Source of the DNA: a phage
Sequence record: OZ077758.1
Direction: 5' to 3' (one strand)
Length of the DNA stretch: 44,664 bases
Positions 4,557 to 23,841 of the stretch are shown here, in pieces. A model generated the notes under the pieces. That model was given only the letters and a program-made list of their open reading frames with translations. It did not search any database and was not told the DNA's origin. The position numbers were made by a program, and so were the translations under genes. Each line of letters begins with the position of its first letter. Position 1 is the stretch's first letter.

Positions 4557-4878
4557 ATATGCAGCTATTGGACTGGTTATCGGTCTGGCGGTAGGATTCT
4601 GGCTAGGTGACTCCTATCGTGCTGGCGTAGTGGCGGAGGCGGCGCAAGAAGCGCAAGCCCAAGCCCAACGGCAGCAAACTAAAGTTGTCGAGCGCTCCGT
4701 GCAGGCCGAACAAGCCCGCGACGTAGAATACCGGACTATCACGAAAGAGGTTGTTAAATATGTTACGCGCCCTAACCGCCCTGATTGTAGTTTTGATGCT
4801 GAGCGCGTGCGGATCAAGCAACGCGCCGTTGATGCCGCTAACGGAGTCGGCACTGCGACCGCCGTGCAAGTTCGATAG
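4549..4878 (+). CDS. i-spanin (Rz-like)
   Basis: GTG start; N-terminal transmembrane helix (AAIGLVIGLAVGFWLG) followed by charged Q/A/E-rich periplasmic region; o-spanin ORF embedded in +1 frame. Confidence 0.6.
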   Translation: MIKYAAIGLVIGLAVGFWLGDSYRAGVVAEAAQEAQAQAQRQQTKVVERSVQAEQARDVEYRTITKEVVKYVTRPNRPDCSFDAERVRIKQRAVDAANGVGTATAVQVR

Positions 4879-4990
4879 CCCGTCCGCAGACCCCGACGAG
4901 GATTTGATGATTGACGTGAAAAATATGGAATGCGGGGCGAAGCTAAGGGCGCAGGTGCTGGAGTTGCAGCAAATAATTAAGGGGCCGTAA
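4760..4990 (+). CDS. o-spanin (Rz1-like lipoprotein)
   Basis: ATG at 4760 with RBS AAGAGG; signal peptide ending in lipobox LSAC; Pro-rich; overlaps and extends past the i-spanin gene. Confidence 0.6.
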   Translation: MLRALTALIVVLMLSACGSSNAPLMPLTESALRPPCKFDSPSADPDEDLMIDVKNMECGAKLRAQVLELQQIIKGP

Positions 4991-16573: not shown

Positions 16574-17181
16574 CAACGTTTAAATTGTACGGCGTCTTAG
16601 GGCGTCGATTCGGTAAAGTTCATAAGCTGGACTGCTTCACTCCGGGCGAGGGTATTACCGGCCTGTGCGTGAAGTTACCCGGCTTACAGGACTTTCTAAT
16701 GTCAGCCCACCTGGACAATATGATGTTCAAGGTGCGCAAAGGCGACCACACGATGACCGGCTATGATGAGCTGGGTGAGTTCCACGGCAACCGCGTCGTC
16801 ACCATCGCGCCGGTTATGACTGGCGCAAAAAGAGGGTTGGGACAATTGCTGGCGGGTGTCGCGATCGTAGTGGCGTCGTTCTATACGGGCGGACTTGCTA
16901 CTGCCGCTTTCGGGGCTTCGGCTGCAACCGCTGCCGCTATCGGGACGGCGACGTTTTCGTTCGGGATGTCGATGGCGCTGGGTGGCGTTATGCAATTGCT
17001 GTCGCCACAACCGAAGGGATTGCAGACAAGGCAGGACGTGGATAACAAGGCGTCGTATGCGTTCGGCGGCCCAGTAAACACTACCGCGCAAGGCACGGCT
17101 CTTGGTGTATTATGGGGCGAGCGTGAGATCGGCGGCGCTATTATTTCAGCCGGAATCGTAACCGAGGACTTGAACGAATGA
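16564..17181 (+). CDS. tail assembly protein I (gpI-like)
   Basis: 205 aa; N-terminal ubiquitin-like region and Gly/Ala-rich hydrophobic C-terminal segment; position between K and J. Confidence 0.7.
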   Translation: MAMTTFKLYGVLGRRFGKVHKLDCFTPGEGITGLCVKLPGLQDFLMSAHLDNMMFKVRKGDHTMTGYDELGEFHGNRVVTIAPVMTGAKRGLGQLLAGVAIVVASFYTGGLATAAFGASAATAAAIGTATFSFGMSMALGGVMQLLSPQPKGLQTRQDVDNKASYAFGGPVNTTAQGTALGVLWGEREIGGAIISAGIVTEDLNE

Positions 17182-20100
17182 CGATTATCTACGACGTCAC
17201 AGGGCATAAAGGCGGCGGCGGCAAACAGCACACCCCACAGGAGACGCCAGATAGCCTGCATTCGCTGGCTAAAATCCGCATCTTGCTTGCGCTGGGGGAA
17301 GGGGAATTCGAAAGTATTACCAGCGCCAGCGAATTGCGGCAGCGTGTTTACCTGGATGGAACGCCGATCCAGAACGCTGACTTGTCCGAAAACTTCCCTG
17401 GCGCGCGTGTGGAGTTCCGCCCCGGCACACAGCACCAGGATGTGATCCACGGATTTTCAGCGGTGGAAAGTGAGCAATCTGTCGGCGTAAAACTGGAAAA
17501 CGGTACGCCGTGGGTACGCCAGATTAACGATACCAGTCTGGACGCCGTTCGCATTCGCATCGGAATTCCGGCCCTGTACACTAACGAAGATAATGGCGAC
17601 CTGGTTGGCGGACGCATTGACTATAAGATCGTTGTGTATACGGATAACGCCGACCCGCGTGAGTTCAGATTCGCCGCCGTTGGTAAAACAATGTCGCTGT
17701 ATGAGCGCGACCACCGCATCGAATTACCGCCGAACGTGAATACCGGCTGGCGCGTGGAGGTGCACCGCATAACGGCAGACTCCACATCGGCGAAAGTGGT
17801 TAATGATATCCGGGTGCAGTCCATCACTGAGATTATTGACGCCCGCCTGCGTTACCCGCTAACCGCGCTGTTGTTTGTGGAGTTCGACGCCAAAGCGTTC
17901 CAGAACATCCCGCGCGTGTCCATCAAGTGCAAAGGTCGCAAAGTTCTAATACCGAACAACTACGACCCGATCAATCATACCTATTCCGGGGACTGGGACG
18001 GCACGTTTAAACGCGCATGGACGGATAACCCTGCGTGGCACTGGTACGATATTTGTATTACTGAGCGCTTCGGCCTCGGTCGGCGTATCAAACCGCAAAT
18101 GCTAAACCGATACGCGCTCTACCAGATTGCGCAGCGCTGCGATCAGTTGGTCAGCGACGGCAACGGTGGTCGAGAAATCCGCTTTAAGAATGATATGTAC
18201 ATTCAGTCACAGACGGATGCCTGGACCGTGCTTAAGGATTTAGCCGCCATCTTCGCCGGAATGACCTGGTGGGGCAACCAGATGTTGAATATCGTCAGTG
18301 ACCAACCGGTCGCAGCAGTGTCGCACACTATCACCAACGCCTCGGTTATTGATGGGCGCTTCGACTACGCGTCCGGTAGCCAGAAAACTCGGTACTCCAC
18401 GTTCGCAGTAGCATACGGCAACCCGAAGAACCACTATGAAGATGCTATCGCAACGGGGCAACGTGTCGAACTGGTACGCCGCCATAAGATTAACCGTCTT
18501 GATATTACGGCGATCGGCTGTACGCGTGAATCTGAAGCGCAACGTCGCGGGCACTGGGCGCTAATTTCCAACCAGCTTGACCAGCAAGTTAGCTTTAAAG
18601 TTGGCATGGAAGGGTTATTCTTTATTCCCGGTAGCGTAGTCGCGATCGCGGATACAAACATTTCTGGCGGTTTTGAGACGCGCGGCGGTCGACTGTTGTC
18701 GGACCCAGGAACTCGTACCGTGCTGAACACGGACAGCGAAATCACATTCCGCCCTGGCGATAAGTTCCTGGTACGCACCGATAGCGGTAATGTGGAGACT
18801 CGCGAGATCGCCAGCGTCAACGGCAACAAGGTAACGCTAAAAACCGCACTGGACGCCAACCCTATTCCTGACCAGCCGTTTTGCATTGATGGCGACGATA
18901 TCCAGTTGCAGAAATTCCGCATCACCGACCTGGAGTATGACGACTCTACGAGCACTTTCTCGGTGCGCGGGATTGAGTACAACGATAGCAAGTATGATGC
19001 CGTCGATAATGGCGCGCGCCTTGATCCGGGTATCTTTACGCAAGTGCCTGACGGGGTAATGAAGGGGCCGGAATCCGTGACCATCACCCCGTCGCAGATT
19101 TCATCGCAAGGGCAGCTAATCACCAACGTGGATATTGTATTCCCTCCGGTGAAGGATGCCGTGGTGTATGAAATCCAGTGGAGGCGTACCAGCCTTCAGA
19201 ATATGGAAATCCAGTGGGGTAACGACTGGGTGAATATCCCACGCACGGCGTCGAATGGGGCGCACATCCCTAACGTGTTCTCCGGTAACTACCAGGCACG
19301 CGTCCGCGCGATCGGTATGGGCGAGATTTCATCTCCGTGGGTGTCGTCCGCCATCACGCCGGTGGAAGGTCGTCTCGGTGGGCTTAACGCACCAATCATC
19401 ACCAACGCTATTTCGGGCCTTCACCAGATCTTGTGGAAGTGGAACCACAACAACGCCGCTACTGATATCTCGTACACCGAGCTTGAAGTGCGCAAGACCG
19501 GTGAGACTGAATGGAAATTCCTTACCAACGTCCCATATCCGGGGGCGGAGTATGCGCAAACATCGCTGGAGTTCGGAATTTACCAGCAGTTGCGCGCCCG
19601 TGTAGCGGATAAAATCGGCAACCTGTCGGACTGGTCGGCCCCGTTTGAAGGGCAGGTGAGTGACAAAGTTGACGAGTACATGAAGGGGCTTGATGACGAG
19701 TTCTTGACTTCCGAGGATGGTAAACGCTTCCAGGAAGCAATCAACACGATCCCGCAGGGTATTTACGAGGCGATGCTCACCGACGCGCAGCAATTGTTCA
19801 ACGCCCGCGCCGAGTACAAGGGTATTTATGCGGAAATCTCGGTCGCGTATAACGTGGCGGCGGACGCCCACAAGGCGGTCGCTCAACTGGAGACGTTGAT
19901 CGGCACGCGACTTGATGACGCGGAAGCTGCGATCCACACGTTGCAGACCGCGCAGAGCACACAGGAACAAGCGTTCGCCCAGTATCAGCAAACTGTTGCC
20001 GCTAAGTTCGGGGAACAAGAAGCCGCCATCCAGCAGGTACAAACGGCAACGGCGGACGTGGCGGGCGCACTTGCGGAGTACAAAACCCAGGTGGCGGCAC

Positions 20101-20597
20101 AGTTCGGTCAGCAGTCCGCAGCTATCGAGCAGAAGATGACGTCAACGTTTAACCATGCGGGTGGTAGCGCCACCTACAGCCTTAAGGCGGGCGTGACGTA
20201 TAACGGGACTTACTATGATGCCGGTATGCAGCTTTCCGTTGTGACGTCGGGCAACGCGGTTAAATCGCGTATTGCGTTCAAGGCGGACCAGTTCTACATC
20301 ATGCACCCATCCAATGGGACGCTTTCGTCCGCGTTTATTGTGGACGGCGGACAGGTGTATATCGACACGGCACGCATCAAGAACGCGTCCATCAACTTCG
20401 CGCAGATAACAGACACGCTGCAATCGAATAACTACGACGGCAGCACGCGCGGCTGGCGCTTAGGGAAAGATGGAACGTTTATCAACCTGGGCACCGGTAG
20501 CGGCGGCGGGATGAAACAGACGAACACAAGAATCAGCGTGAAGGACGGAAACGGCGTTCTCCGCGTGCAGATTGGTGAGCTTACTGGTAGCTGGTAG
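17178..20597 (+). CDS. central tail fibre / host specificity protein (gpJ-like)
   Basis: 1139 aa, overlaps gpI stop; size and position of lambda J. Confidence 0.85.
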   Translation: MTIIYDVTGHKGGGGKQHTPQETPDSLHSLAKIRILLALGEGEFESITSASELRQRVYLDGTPIQNADLSENFPGARVEFRPGTQHQDVIHGFSAVESEQSVGVKLENGTPWVRQINDTSLDAVRIRIGIPALYTNEDNGDLVGGRIDYKIVVYTDNADPREFRFAAVGKTMSLYERDHRIELPPNVNTGWRVEVHRITADSTSAKVVNDIRVQSITEIIDARLRYPLTALLFVEFDAKAFQNIPRVSIKCKGRKVLIPNNYDPINHTYSGDWDGTFKRAWTDNPAWHWYDICITERFGLGRRIKPQMLNRYALYQIAQRCDQLVSDGNGGREIRFKNDMYIQSQTDAWTVLKDLAAIFAGMTWWGNQMLNIVSDQPVAAVSHTITNASVIDGRFDYASGSQKTRYSTFAVAYGNPKNHYEDAIATGQRVELVRRHKINRLDITAIGCTRESEAQRRGHWALISNQLDQQVSFKVGMEGLFFIPGSVVAIADTNISGGFETRGGRLLSDPGTRTVLNTDSEITFRPGDKFLVRTDSGNVETREIASVNGNKVTLKTALDANPIPDQPFCIDGDDIQLQKFRITDLEYDDSTSTFSVRGIEYNDSKYDAVDNGARLDPGIFTQVPDGVMKGPESVTITPSQISSQGQLITNVDIVFPPVKDAVVYEIQWRRTSLQNMEIQWGNDWVNIPRTASNGAHIPNVFSGNYQARVRAIGMGEISSPWVSSAITPVEGRLGGLNAPIITNAISGLHQILWKWNHNNAATDISYTELEVRKTGETEWKFLTNVPYPGAEYAQTSLEFGIYQQLRARVADKIGNLSDWSAPFEGQVSDKVDEYMKGLDDEFLTSEDGKRFQEAINTIPQGIYEAMLTDAQQLFNARAEYKGIYAEISVAYNVAADAHKAVAQLETLIGTRLDDAEAAIHTLQTAQSTQEQAFAQYQQTVAAKFGEQEAAIQQVQTATADVAGALAEYKTQVAAQFGQQSAAIEQKMTSTFNHAGGSATYSLKAGVTYNGTYYDAGMQLSVVTSGNAVKSRIAFKADQFYIMHPSNGTLSSAFIVDGGQVYIDTARIKNASINFAQITDTLQSNNYDGSTRGWRLGKDGTFINLGTGSGGGMKQTNTRISVKDGNGVLRVQIGELTGSW

Positions 20598-20603
20598 TAT
20601 AGG

Positions 20604-20622
20604 GGCTTCGGCCCCTTTTTAA
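20604..20622 (+). terminator. rho-independent terminator after gpJ-like gene
   Basis: GGGGCTTCGGCCCC hairpin followed by TTTTT. Confidence 0.65.
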
Positions 20623-20633
20623 CGAGGTTATTT

Positions 20634-20936
20634 ATGGCATTCGGTATCGCAACGTGGGACGCGCAAGGACGCCCAAACAACTACGGCATTAAACCGGTAA
20701 GCGTGGTCGGAAGGATTCATCTTGCGGAAGGACAAAAATCAGGCGCATGGTCATTCCCTGTACCGGCGGGGATGAAGGTCGGATACGTGGTCGCACTGGA
20801 TAAAGGCGCGGTCGGGCCAGGCCGCAGAATAACCGCCAGCGGGAACACTATCACGGTATCCGCGGCAAGTGCGGTAGGTGGCGGGGTTTACTCCGCATCT
20901 GAATGTGACGTTATTGTTTTTGTGGAGCGAGCATAA
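20634..20936 (+). CDS. hypothetical protein (tail-tip region)
   Basis: 100-aa ORF directly after gpJ terminator; coupled (ATAATG) to next ORF. Confidence 0.5.
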   Translation: MAFGIATWDAQGRPNNYGIKPVSVVGRIHLAEGQKSGAWSFPVPAGMKVGYVVALDKGAVGPGRRITASGNTITVSAASAVGGGVYSASECDVIVFVERA

Positions 20937-21610
20937 TGGCTAATTACGGCGCGTTGATTGACTTACCAAACGGCAACCCGTTTATCACACCAGAATCGAC
21001 GCCGTTTTGTCTATTCCGCCGTGTGGTTGTTGGGTCTTCGGCTAACGGCACTGCGCAGTCGGCGGCTGCCGATATTAATTTGGGTGGTGACTACCCTGCA
21101 ATAGCGTTTGTGAAAACTACGCACACCGCCCAGCCGACCGTCGTAGGGTCTTCTCGCGTTGGTAATGTGGTGAAGGTGAGCGCCAGCAATCCATTCGGGC
21201 AAGGCTTCACGATGACGGCTTACATCTTTGCCATATTCCCACAGACCCTTCCGCGGTGGGGCTTCGCTATTTGGGATAAGACGGGGAAGCTAGTGCTTAC
21301 TAATGAGAGTCGCGTACTAAGTGATTTAGTTACCGTCGGATCGCCAGGCGCTAACGGGGGGATTAACATTGACCAGACGCTAAACGGCAGCTACGCCGTC
21401 GCTCCGGGCATATTGGGGTCTACGCTGATCCGGTTTTTTGTGCAGGGCCAGCCGCAAGTAATATCGGTGACGGCGTACACGGGGGCCAGATTTGATGGGT
21501 CGCGAACGCGTATATCAGCAGCGTCGTCGGGGAACGCCACAGGGGATGTGGTAGGGTATACTAACAACGGCAACGCGATTATGGCGATTAACACCGCCAA
21601 TTATGATTGA
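20936..21610 (+). CDS. hypothetical protein, possible receptor-binding or tail-associated protein
   Basis: 224 aa, Gly/Ser/Thr-rich; position between gpJ and the exclusion-like lipoprotein. Confidence 0.5.
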   Translation: MANYGALIDLPNGNPFITPESTPFCLFRRVVVGSSANGTAQSAAADINLGGDYPAIAFVKTTHTAQPTVVGSSRVGNVVKVSASNPFGQGFTMTAYIFAIFPQTLPRWGFAIWDKTGKLVLTNESRVLSDLVTVGSPGANGGINIDQTLNGSYAVAPGILGSTLIRFFVQGQPQVISVTAYTGARFDGSRTRISAASSGNATGDVVGYTNNGNAIMAINTANYD

Positions 21611-21612
21611 AG

Positions 21613-21636
21613 AAAGCCCCGAAAGGGGCTTATTTG
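21613..21636. terminator. hairpin terminator between convergent genes
   Basis: AGCCCCGAAAGGGGCT hairpin with flanking T-rich sequence on both strands. Confidence 0.5.
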
Positions 21637-21848
21637 CAGGTGGTGCTTTTGAAGTGGTCGACCGACACATACTGGAAGTTGAACGGATACCCCGCCTTGA
21701 GCATTTTGTGCCCGCTAAAGTCGGCGACACCGAACACCGGTACAGAATACTCCATACCGCTATTCATATATGTCGCGTCGCAGATTTTAGACGGCATACC
21801 GGCACAACCGGACAGAAGAACCGCACAAATCATAATTAAAGTTTTCAT
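21630..21848 (-). CDS. small lipoprotein, candidate superinfection-exclusion (Llp/Cor-like role)
   Basis: 72 aa from ATG 21848..21846 with strong RBS AGGAGA; signal peptide MKTLIMICAVLLSGC with lipobox LSGC; opposite strand to flanking tail genes. Confidence 0.65.
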   Translation of the reverse strand: MKTLIMICAVLLSGCAGMPSKICDATYMNSGMEYSVPVFGVADFSGHKMLKAGYPFNFQYVSVDHFKSTTCK

Positions 21849-21927
21849 GTTATCATCTCCTATATTTGGTTGAGTTTTAGTATTACACCTCTCAACCAGG
21901 ATTGCAACCAATTATGAGGATTCAGCT

Positions 21928-23841
21928 ATGGCAGCGGGTACACTATCCGTAACGAATAACAGCAAGGCGGTTGTCGGGGTCGGCACAACGTTTACGGCGT
22001 TTAAAGCGGGCGACTTCTTAACGCTGGTGGTGGGTCAAGTCCCCTACACCGTAGCGATCGCGTCCGTTGAAAGTGCAACCGCGCTAACGCTGGTGCTGCC
22101 GTTCGACGGCCCTACGGCAACCGGCCTAGCGTGGGATGGCGTTAAGCGCGACACCATGTCGCTGGCGACGATGGGCGTAACCGTCCAGGCACAGAAAGCG
22201 TTGCGCTTGATGATCGCAGATGAAAACAACTGGCGTGCAATCTTCGGCGACGCTGAAGAAATCACAGTGACGTTACCTAACGGGCAAGTTATGCAGGGCA
22301 TGTCGTGGGGCTATTTGTCCTCCTTGCTGAAGGAAGTAGACCCCGTTGAGATGCGCAACCTTCAACAACAGGCCGAGACGGCGAAAAACCAAGCTGTTAC
22401 CGCTAAGGGGCAGGCAGAATCGGCGCGCGACGCAGCTAATACGGCGAAGACTGGGGCGGAGACGGCACGCGACGCCGCTAATACTGCGAAGACCGACGCG
22501 CAGACCGCAAAAGGCCAGGCCGAATCCGCACGCGACGCCGCTAATACTGCGAAGACCGGAGCAGAGAACGCTCGCAACCAGGCGCAAGGCTACCGTGATG
22601 AGGCGGAAGGTTTTAAAAACCAGATTAACCCTGCACTATTCGTGCAGAAGTCCCAAAACCTGAATGACGTTGCCGATAAAGCTGAGGCGCGCGCTAACTT
22701 GCAAGTTTTATTTGCGTCAAACTCTAACCTGGGGGCTACCGACCTCAACACGCTCAACAGCACGAAGGAAGGGCGTTATTACCAGACCACATCGGTGAAC
22801 GCTACACCAGAGCGTAACTACCCGTTTCAGGAAGCCGGTTGTCTTACCGTGTTTAAAACCGGCGGGGGTAGTGTGGAGGCTTGCATCCAGGAGTACACCA
22901 CGTTTTCAAGCCTGCGTCGGTTCGTCCGTTCGCTCGCTGGGGCGGTGTGGACGGAGTGGAAGGAGATCTACCTGCAAGGGTCGTCCCCAACATACGAAAA
23001 TATCGACTCGACAGGACGAGTTAGATCTGAAAAGGCATATCCAGCGTTCGAGTGGGTGTCGACGAGAGTAGCCGACGATTTCATCGGTAAGCGAGTCAGC
23101 ATTGAGAACGACACAGGCGTTAATATGTATATGTTCTTCATGCAGAAAGACACAACCGCAAACAGACGTGTCGTAGCGTTCGCAAGGCCAAACTCTACTG
23201 TTTTCCACTTCGTAGGGTATAACGGCGGGCTACCTACCGACGGCAACAGTGCGCCGTCAAATACCATCAACTTTAACACGCAACCGCAAGGCTGGCGTCT
23301 GGTGTCCGGCGGCTGGCAAAATGCACCGCTAGCCGGTAACAATTACGGGACACTATTCACGCAATGTATGCAGGGTGTCGCGCAAGGGGATTCGAAAGAC
23401 AACGGTACATCTGGCTTGTGGTATTCACAGCGATATTTTAATACCGAGTCTAGGGTGTTCATCCGAAATCAAACAAACAACGCCGCCTGGACTGGCTGGT
23501 ACGAGCTTACTAAAACAGCAGTATCGGATGAACGCCTGAAGAATGTAAAAGGTAATTTGAATGTTGAAGGTGCGCTCGATAACATCAACCGCATGGAATT
23601 TAAAATATTCTCGTTTAAGGATGAGAAGGCCGGTAAGGGGTATCGTCGCGGTGTTATCTCGCAGCAGATTCGCCAGATCGATAAAGAGTACACGAAGGAG
23701 ATCGGCGGGTACTATCACCTCGACCAGACACCAATGCTACTGGACGCCCTAGCGGCAATTAAGGCGTTGCGTGCGCGTGACGAGGCTAATAAAGCAGAGA
23801 TTGCAGAACTGAAGGCGGCTATTGCCGAATTGAAGAAATAA
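21928..23841 (+). CDS. tail fibre with C-terminal intramolecular chaperone (peptidase S74) domain
   Basis: 637 aa; tandem 20-residue repeats (ARDAANTAKTGAE...) encoded by nucleotide repeats around 22380..22600; C-terminal SDERLKNV motif and coiled-coil tail characteristic of the self-cleaving chaperone domain. Confidence 0.8.
   Translation: MAAGTLSVTNNSKAVVGVGTTFTAFKAGDFLTLVVGQVPYTVAIASVESATALTLVLPFDGPTATGLAWDGVKRDTMSLATMGVTVQAQKALRLMIADENNWRAIFGDAEEITVTLPNGQVMQGMSWGYLSSLLKEVDPVEMRNLQQQAETAKNQAVTAKGQAESARDAANTAKTGAETARDAANTAKTDAQTAKGQAESARDAANTAKTGAENARNQAQGYRDEAEGFKNQINPALFVQKSQNLNDVADKAEARANLQVLFASNSNLGATDLNTLNSTKEGRYYQTTSVNATPERNYPFQEAGCLTVFKTGGGSVEACIQEYTTFSSLRRFVRSLAGAVWTEWKEIYLQGSSPTYENIDSTGRVRSEKAYPAFEWVSTRVADDFIGKRVSIENDTGVNMYMFFMQKDTTANRRVVAFARPNSTVFHFVGYNGGLPTDGNSAPSNTINFNTQPQGWRLVSGGWQNAPLAGNNYGTLFTQCMQGVAQGDSKDNGTSGLWYSQRYFNTESRVFIRNQTNNAAWTGWYELTKTAVSDERLKNVKGNLNVEGALDNINRMEFKIFSFKDEKAGKGYRRGVISQQIRQIDKEYTKEIGGYYHLDQTPMLLDALAAIKALRARDEANKAEIAELKAAIAELKK

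Follow-up and report, generated by a model that had tools for sequence, protein, structure and literature searches.

A cor-type superinfection-exclusion lipoprotein gene in the probable FhuA receptor cassette of a Dhillonvirus

The small minus-strand gene in front of the lateral tail fibre gene of phage sequence OZ077758.1 is very probably cor, coding for the superinfection-exclusion lipoprotein of a FhuA-type receptor cassette in an apparently virulent Dhillonvirus. The whole stretch of 44,664 nucleotides was analysed and is called the window below. Family membership, lipoprotein signals, a cassette gene order matching that of FhuA-dependent phages and the Llp-like predicted fold come from this analysis; FhuA dependence of close relatives, the function of Cor in phi80, N15 and T1 and the mechanism of Llp come from the literature.

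Gene neighbourhood of cor

The 3.9 kb around cor share 97.5% identity with Escherichia phage EC115 and match 157 phage records, almost all of them E. coli Dhillonviruses. Judged by its sequence, the window phage is a Dhillonvirus as well. The features of the region are the following:

17178–20597, plus strand: gpJ-like central tail fibre or tip attachment protein (Pfam FNIII-A_GpJ, Phage_Tail_Tip and Phage-tail_3; phrog_31), left flank of the cassette
20606–21804, no strand assigned: receptor-specificity cassette (100-aa gene, 224-aa gene and mature Cor), delimited by homology breaks against relatives
20634–20936, plus strand: 100-aa gene (phrog_557, E=1.1e-32), homologue of N15 gp22, T1 ST32 and phi80 gp22
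20936–21610, plus strand: 224-aa gene (phrog_425, E=4.6e-70), homologue of N15 gp23, T1 ST31 and phi80 gp23
21610–21631, both strands: predicted terminator hairpin separating cor from the convergent 224-aa gene, from folding energies
21630–21848, minus strand: cor coding sequence including the stop codon (72-aa prolipoprotein, 58-aa mature protein)
21804–21848, minus strand: signal peptide codons 1–14 and the lipobox Cys15 codon (LSG/C), located by a lipobox and hydrophobicity script
21857–21861, minus strand: AGGAG as ribosome-binding site of cor, 8 nt ahead of the start codon, read directly
21879–21907, minus strand: putative sigma-70 promoter of cor, proposed from conservation in seven phages
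21928–23841, plus strand: lateral tail fibre with a Peptidase_S74 chaperone domain at its C-terminus (PF13884, E=1.4e-8; phrog_1980, E=2e-120), right flank of the cassette

The first-pass annotation had placed the 72-aa ORF between the gpJ region and the tail fibre gene. This is correct, but the ORF is not directly adjacent to gpJ, as the two plus-strand genes of 100 and 224 codons intervene. The interval given at that time, 21630–21912, covers the coding sequence, the leader and the likely promoter, but the coding sequence itself ends at 21848.

The order of J, the 100-aa gene (phrog_557), the 224-aa gene (phrog_425), cor and the side fibre gene is the same in T1, N15 and phi80. The same order is seen in JLBYU60, bob and Opt212. 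The lateral tail fibre gene is transcribed divergently from cor. In T1, as in the window, cor is encoded on the opposite strand, convergent with the gp23 homologue.

FhuA binding at this locus is tentatively assigned to the 224-aa protein. Its family has been described as a part of the cor cassette (PMC8594841; PMC13164509; bioRxiv 10.64898/2026.04.02.716166), and published Foldseek and HHpred searches of this candidate receptor-binding protein family gave no hits. It is 52–59% identical to the corresponding proteins of FhuA-dependent T1-like and lambdoid phages. Homologues occur in 357 phage records, 111 of which are from Klebsiella phages and show about 32% identity, while a tblastn search with Cor retrieved just two Klebsiella phage records. 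As the gp23 family is wider than Cor, a role in the tail or in receptor binding suits it better than that of an exclusion accessory.

The lateral tail fibre contains near-repeats of a motif of about 20 aa (AKGQAESARDAANTAKTGAE...) at residues ~140–225 (window positions ~22340–22600, plus strand). Fibre length varies among close relatives: the protein has 637 aa here, and the coding sequence measures 1,959 nt in EC115 and 1,725 nt in TheodorHerzl.

The cor gene and its expression signals

Reading and translation of the ORF on the minus strand put the cor start codon ATG at 21848–21846 and the stop codon TAA at 21632–21630. The complete 72-aa product is MKTLIMICAVLLSGCAGMPSKICDATYMNSGMEYSVPVFGVADFSGHKMLKAGYPFNFQYVSVDHFKSTTCK; it begins with MKTLIMICAVLLSGC, after which the mature part continues as AGMPSK. 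The ribosome-binding site reads AGGAG or AGGGG in the seven phages compared. Among Dhillonvirus orthologues the dN/dS ratio is 0.06–0.20, indicating that cor is under purifying selection.

The putative promoter combines TTGCAA (21907–21902), a 17-nt spacer and TGt-AATACT, with TG at 21887–21886 and the −10 hexamer at 21884–21879. It scores 8/12 plus the extended −10 element. In the seven phages, which carry three different cassettes, both TTGCA(A/T) and TGTAATACT are invariant and separated by 17 nt, while the spacer sequence varies. A consensus scan for promoters and terminators left this site below its threshold, and the hairpin downstream of cor was absent from its list too. The pattern suggests an extended −10 sigma-70 promoter upstream of cor, which would serve whichever lipoprotein gene occupies the slot.

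The hairpin at 21614–21631 lies directly 3′ of the cor stop, where only a short stretch separates the two convergent stop codons. It has a GC-rich stem of 7 bp, with a folding energy of −12.4 kcal/mol (z = −3.2); the second strand gives −14.0 kcal/mol (z = −2.8). Terminators are annotated in T1 at the same place, between cor and the gp23 homologue.

A promoter-like site was also seen on the plus strand at 21809–21836 (CGGACA, 16 nt, CATAAT). It is antisense to the signal peptide codons of cor and lies upstream of the lateral tail fibre gene, inside a segment that is conserved across cassette types. Since it sits within this segment, the site could drive the fibre gene downstream of the predicted terminator at 21610–21631.

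Lipoprotein signal

The N-terminus of Cor consists of the signal peptide MKTLIMICAVLLSG, directly followed by the lipobox cysteine, which leaves a mature protein of 58 aa. It has a lysine at position 2 and a hydrophobic core of ten residues with a mean Kyte-Doolittle value of 3.0. A PROSITE-type lipobox match, IMICAVLLSGC, ends at Cys15 and is followed by alanine at position +2. The strong ribosome-binding site, signal peptide and LSGC lipobox described by the first-pass annotation for this opposite-strand ORF were thus all found in place. N-termini of this type are rare: across the whole window they occur in only two of the 476 Met-initiated ORF variants of at least 50 aa. The second one belongs to a plus-strand ORF at 4760–4990 (76 aa, lipobox LSAC), which is an Rz1-like o-spanin (phrog_5672, E=4e-26).

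By these features the Cor N-terminus is a type II signal peptide with a lipobox cysteine that is predicted to be lipidated. According to the Lol rule, alanine at +2 directs a lipoprotein to the outer membrane, so sorting of Cor to this membrane is expected.

Membership in the Cor family

The 72-aa protein matches phrog_1119 ("Cor superinfection exclusion protein") over residues 1–72 (E=5.3e-28) and scores 62.8 bits with NF047972 ("phage exclusion lipoprotein Cor"), an NCBIfam equivalog whose curated cutoff is 31. A tblastn search found Cor in 246 phage records. Phages jat and welsh have the protein unchanged (100% identity), and other Dhillonviruses have it at 83–96% identity; the value falls to 47–56% in T1-like phages (49% for T1 itself), 40–45% in lambdoid HK/mEp phages, 42% for N15 gene 24 and 40% for phi80. 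EC115, jat and welsh encode a protein identical to the window Cor and annotated as super-infection exclusion or cor; in EC115 this is a 219-nt coding sequence ("super-infection exclusion protein, cor") with one synonymous difference. On this evidence the protein is a clear member of the Cor family, an already known and annotated gene that holds no novelty. The earlier impression that the sequence was not recognisably Llp or Cor and might form a distinct family is therefore wrong with respect to Cor.

A word-based homologue search returned only six close relatives, and a profile of five sequences was needed to reach the Cor family. The profile search of 5.8 billion proteins yielded 231 relatives, many of them named "phage exclusion lipoprotein Cor" or "cor protein" and found in enterobacterial prophages. 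The lipid-bearing Cys15 is invariant in 115 Cor sequences, as are C23, C71 and G53 (mature Cys9, Cys57 and Gly39). The second cysteine follows the lipid cysteine by eight residues and the third is C-terminal. A52, Y54, P55 and F56 of the (R/K)AGYPF motif are near-invariant in the same set.

T5 Llp (2501–2734 of the compared T5 stretch) matches phrog_1119 as well (E=1.1e-19), and the RefSeq record of T5 labels it "Cor superinfection exclusion protein". Cor and Llp are therefore not distinguishable by a phrog_1119 match alone.

A T1-like cor at 53–56% identity and a coliphage-type gp23 homologue were also seen in eight records that bear the name "Campylobacter phage" (e.g., A15b and A14a, host C. 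jejuni; MG065637, MG065641). These are probably contaminants or mislabelled T1-like phages.

Predicted fold

The AlphaFold2 model of mature Cor, built on the alignment of 115 sequences, is all-beta with a pLDDT of 87.7. The most complete Foldseek match in the PDB is 8a60_B, which is Llp bound to FhuA (TMq 0.64, TMt 0.60, rmsd 3.2 Å, 59 columns, 24% identity); the NMR structure of Llp, 7qjf, was matched too (TMq 0.56). The Foldseek E-value for Llp is weak (0.07), as expected for a query of 58 residues, and Tudor/SH3-like barrels score similarly, so the Llp match was judged by the two-way TM-score and full-length coverage. In BFVD the nearest models after a Dhillonvirus orthologue are lipoproteins of T5-like phages (TMq 0.65–0.80).

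Llp is also the best sequence match of the Cor profile in the PDB (E=0.047), and pairwise BLASTP aligns Cor and Llp at 38% identity over 40 residues, with an E-value of 1e-5 that refers to a single comparison and a match that partly covers the signal peptide. Alignment of the Cor profile with mature Llp by hhalign was not significant, so the link between the two proteins rests on fold rather than sequence. In Llp, the Cys11–Cys58 disulfide ties the ends of the protein together (PMC9586334). In our model Cys9 and Cys57 of mature Cor are equivalent in position to this pair. Two recent papers, independently of each other, ascribe a common fold and probably a common mechanism to Cor and Llp (PMC13164509; bioRxiv 10.64898/2026.03.26.714494), and the latter states that the molecular mechanism of Cor has not yet been elucidated.

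FhuA as the probable receptor

Cor of T1, phi80 and N15 is reported to shut off FhuA, the phage's own receptor, after infection. The cor cassette is present in T1, HK022, N15, ES18 and phi80, all of them FhuA-dependent, and the BASEL phages that have cor plus the two genes upstream of it are all FhuA users, belonging to Drexlerviridae and Dhillonvirus (PMC13164509). FhuA dependence has also been reported for the closer relatives JLBYU37, JLBYU60, bob and Envy (PMC10373560). Cor of JLBYU60, bob and Envy is 88–94% identical to the window protein, and the cassettes of JLBYU60 and bob have the same gene order as that of the window.

A Cor-like protein has also been reported in Tempevirinae that use BtuB (PMC13164509), so membership in the Cor family does not by itself prove specificity for FhuA. 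We infer FhuA as the target of the window Cor from its partners in the cassette and from what is reported on the receptors of close relatives. The gene thereby predicts FhuA as the terminal receptor of the phage, and resistance of infected cells to other phages that need FhuA, T1, T5 and phi80 among them. The predicted FhuA use should help in the design of phage cocktails and in the reading of cross-resistance; beyond this, the practical gain is little more than a correct annotation.

Exchange of the receptor-specificity cassette

Comparison with sister phages delimits the exchanged segment. Against BEK2-2, homology ends at 20605, just past the gpJ stop codon, and restarts at 21805, at the Cys15 codon. 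Against the LptD-dependent TheodorHerzl it ends at 20458 and restarts at 21835. Both joints of the cassette (left 20458–20605, right 21805–21835) are sharp breaks, the right one lying inside the signal peptide codons of cor. As a result, the signal peptide MKTLIMICAVLLSGC recurs unchanged in BEK2-2 in front of another mature domain.

TheodorHerzl fills the slot with another pair of receptor-binding protein and lipoprotein, of 311 aa (phrog_1265) and 76 aa (phrog_4281); the lipoprotein shares only MKTLI with Cor. In BEK2-2 it holds an 89-aa Cor-like lipoprotein (phrog_1119, E=7.6e-7), a gp22-like protein of 92 aa and a gp23-like protein of 204 aa. All three BEK2-2 genes (1388–2544 of the compared BEK2-2 stretch) are on the minus strand, i.e., gp22 and gp23 are inverted relative to the window. 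The first 15 residues of the BEK2-2 lipoprotein are those of the window Cor; its mature part is at best distantly Cor-like, and hhalign of the Cor profile against this part gave no significant match.

The locus downstream of gpJ is known as a horizontally exchanged receptor-specificity locus with superinfection-exclusion genes (PMC8594841; bioRxiv 10.64898/2026.04.02.716166; PMC11990801). As cor is an integral part of a cassette exchanged as a unit, "moron", the term applied to it by the first-pass annotation, is a poor label.

We tentatively suggest, while considering it somewhat more apt to fail than to hold, that the right-hand joint of Dhillonviruses falls in the signal peptide codons and that the constant promoter, ribosome-binding site and signal peptide start form a "socket" for expression and export of receptor-specific domains. 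Unrelated mature domains, each arriving with the binding protein that matches it, would fit such a socket; the cases at hand are Cor (FhuA), an Rtp45-like protein (LptD) and the divergent Cor-like protein of BEK2-2. Our literature search found no published description of a joint inside the signal peptide codons, which is a minor point. If the arrangement is general, it would explain why receptor switching always brings the matching self-exclusion. The structure of the cassette also shows where to cut for swapping receptor specificity between Dhillonviruses.

Proposed mechanism and alternative explanations

Periplasmic jamming of FhuA with allosteric closure of its phage-binding surface is the most likely mechanism, given the Llp-like fold of the Cor model, the equivalent pair of cysteines and the known action of Llp. 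By binding the periplasmic face and the plug of FhuA, Llp makes loops EL7 and EL8 turn inward and cover the pb5 site (PMC9586334). By analogy, a sigma-70-type promoter of its own would drive cor, with no dependence on the plus-strand tail operon. The 72-aa precursor would be exported, lipidated on Cys15, cleaved by signal peptidase II and anchored at the inner side of the outer membrane. From this site its 58-aa all-beta domain, which a Cys9–Cys57 disulfide (mature numbering) would close, may bind the periplasmic face and the plug of FhuA. The locked receptor would no longer accept a phage receptor-binding protein at its outer loops, so that the infected cell and its debris would cease to adsorb the window phage and other FhuA-dependent phages. 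Both the timing of expression and the periplasmic allosteric mode are what we infer here. A receptor-inactivating lipoprotein placed like T5 llp or phi80 cor had been proposed from the first reading of the region, and this proposal is supported by homology, synteny, fold and the published biology of close relatives. Its wording as receptor masking is probably imprecise, since the solved homologue Llp acts by allostery from the periplasm and not by covering the receptor surface (PMC9586334).

Literal masking by a surface-exposed Cor is unlikely, though it has precedents: an early in vitro study, as cited in PMC9586334, put Llp outside the cell, and the first AF3 attempts placed Cor on the outer face of FhuA (PMC13164509). 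When the N-terminus of FhuA is omitted, however, AF3 docks Cor on the periplasmic face with an ipTM of 0.84 (PMC13164509), and the FhuA-Llp crystal structure has Llp bound on the periplasmic side, with allosteric closure of the loops (PMC9586334). The Cor model has the Llp fold, and alanine at +2, with no feature of surface export, predicts the inner leaflet of the outer membrane. We rejected surface masking on the periplasmic Llp structure, the Llp-like fold and this residue. There is also a slim chance that Cor proteins of Dhillonviruses target another outer membrane protein, e.g., BtuB or a different TonB-dependent transporter. Identity to Cor proteins reported as functional (T1, phi80, N15) is only 40–50%, BtuB-dependent Tempevirinae have their own Cor-like protein (PMC13164509), and in BEK2-2 a divergent Cor-like protein goes with divergent gp22- and gp23-like partners. 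Against this stand the reported FhuA dependence of Dhillonviruses having the same cassette and 88–94% identical Cor (PMC10373560), and the similarity of the 224-aa partner to those of FhuA-dependent phages noted above. Two further readings have next to no credibility. That the protein belongs to a new family unrelated to Cor and Llp might be suggested by the lack of a Pfam match, but Pfam has no model for Cor and the missing match says nothing about novelty; the reading was rejected on the NF047972 score above the cutoff, the full-length phrog_1119 match, the 49% identity to T1 Cor and the identical proteins annotated as cor. A lysis lipoprotein would share the small size, the lipobox and outer membrane sorting with Cor, but the window has its separate Rz1-like o-spanin at 4760–4990, and the cor ORF shows no spanin homology and lies in the tail region rather than in the lysis region, so the o-spanin reading was discarded as well.

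Inactivation of FhuA from the periplasm, our preferred reading, can benefit the phage in more than one way. Progeny protection would mean that virions are not wasted on FhuA in debris and vesicles; the chance that this is the selected benefit, with exclusion of competitors being secondary, falls a little short of even. The phage appears to be virulent, as judged from its membership in Dhillonvirus, a group treated as virulent in the BASEL work, and there is consequently no lysogen to protect. Progeny protection has been stated for T1 Cor and T5 Llp in the BASEL follow-up (PMC11990801), and the KanT1 paper agrees. It is compatible with superinfection exclusion, however, and the sequence does not distinguish between the two pay-offs. 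Probably the virulent phage gains from both, competitor exclusion and protection of its progeny from adsorption to debris.

Comparison with known systems

Cor of the window is homologous over its full length to Cor of T1 (ST30), phi80 (gp24) and N15 (gene 24) and shares with them the size, the lipobox, the pair of cysteines and the AGYPF motif. Its gene has the same neighbours, with J, gp22 and gp23 on one side and the side fibre gene on the other. Like T1 cor, it lies on the opposite strand and is convergent with the gp23 homologue across a common terminator. Two differences are seen: the carrier is an apparently virulent phage of Dhillonvirus rather than a lambdoid prophage or a member of Drexlerviridae, and Cor of N15 and phi80 has an insertion of three residues (QSP/QEP) before Cys23 that the window protein lacks.

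T5 Llp (PDB 8A60, 7QJF) is likewise a small outer membrane lipoprotein encoded on the opposite strand beside a receptor-binding gene, with its own promoter. The predicted fold is the same (TM 0.60–0.64), the position of the terminal disulfide is equivalent, FhuA, the target of Llp, is expected to be that of Cor too and both belong to phrog_1119, but identity is only about 24%. In addition, llp adjoins a receptor-binding protein gene of the pb5 (oad) type, while the neighbours of cor in the window are gp22- and gp23-like (phrog_557, phrog_425) and not pb5.

The superinfection-exclusion lipoprotein of the Rtp45 type, known from phages that depend on LptD (Rtp; TheodorHerzl bas14_0026; phrog_4281), occupies the identical genomic slot in sister Dhillonviruses. 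In TheodorHerzl the upstream region and the first five codons (MKTLI) are common with cor, and the product is a lipoprotein too, but the mature sequence and the family are unrelated to Cor and the target is LptDE, not FhuA. The logic is nevertheless the same, as binding of the Rtp45-type protein from the periplasm prevents binding of the receptor-binding protein (PMC12685063).
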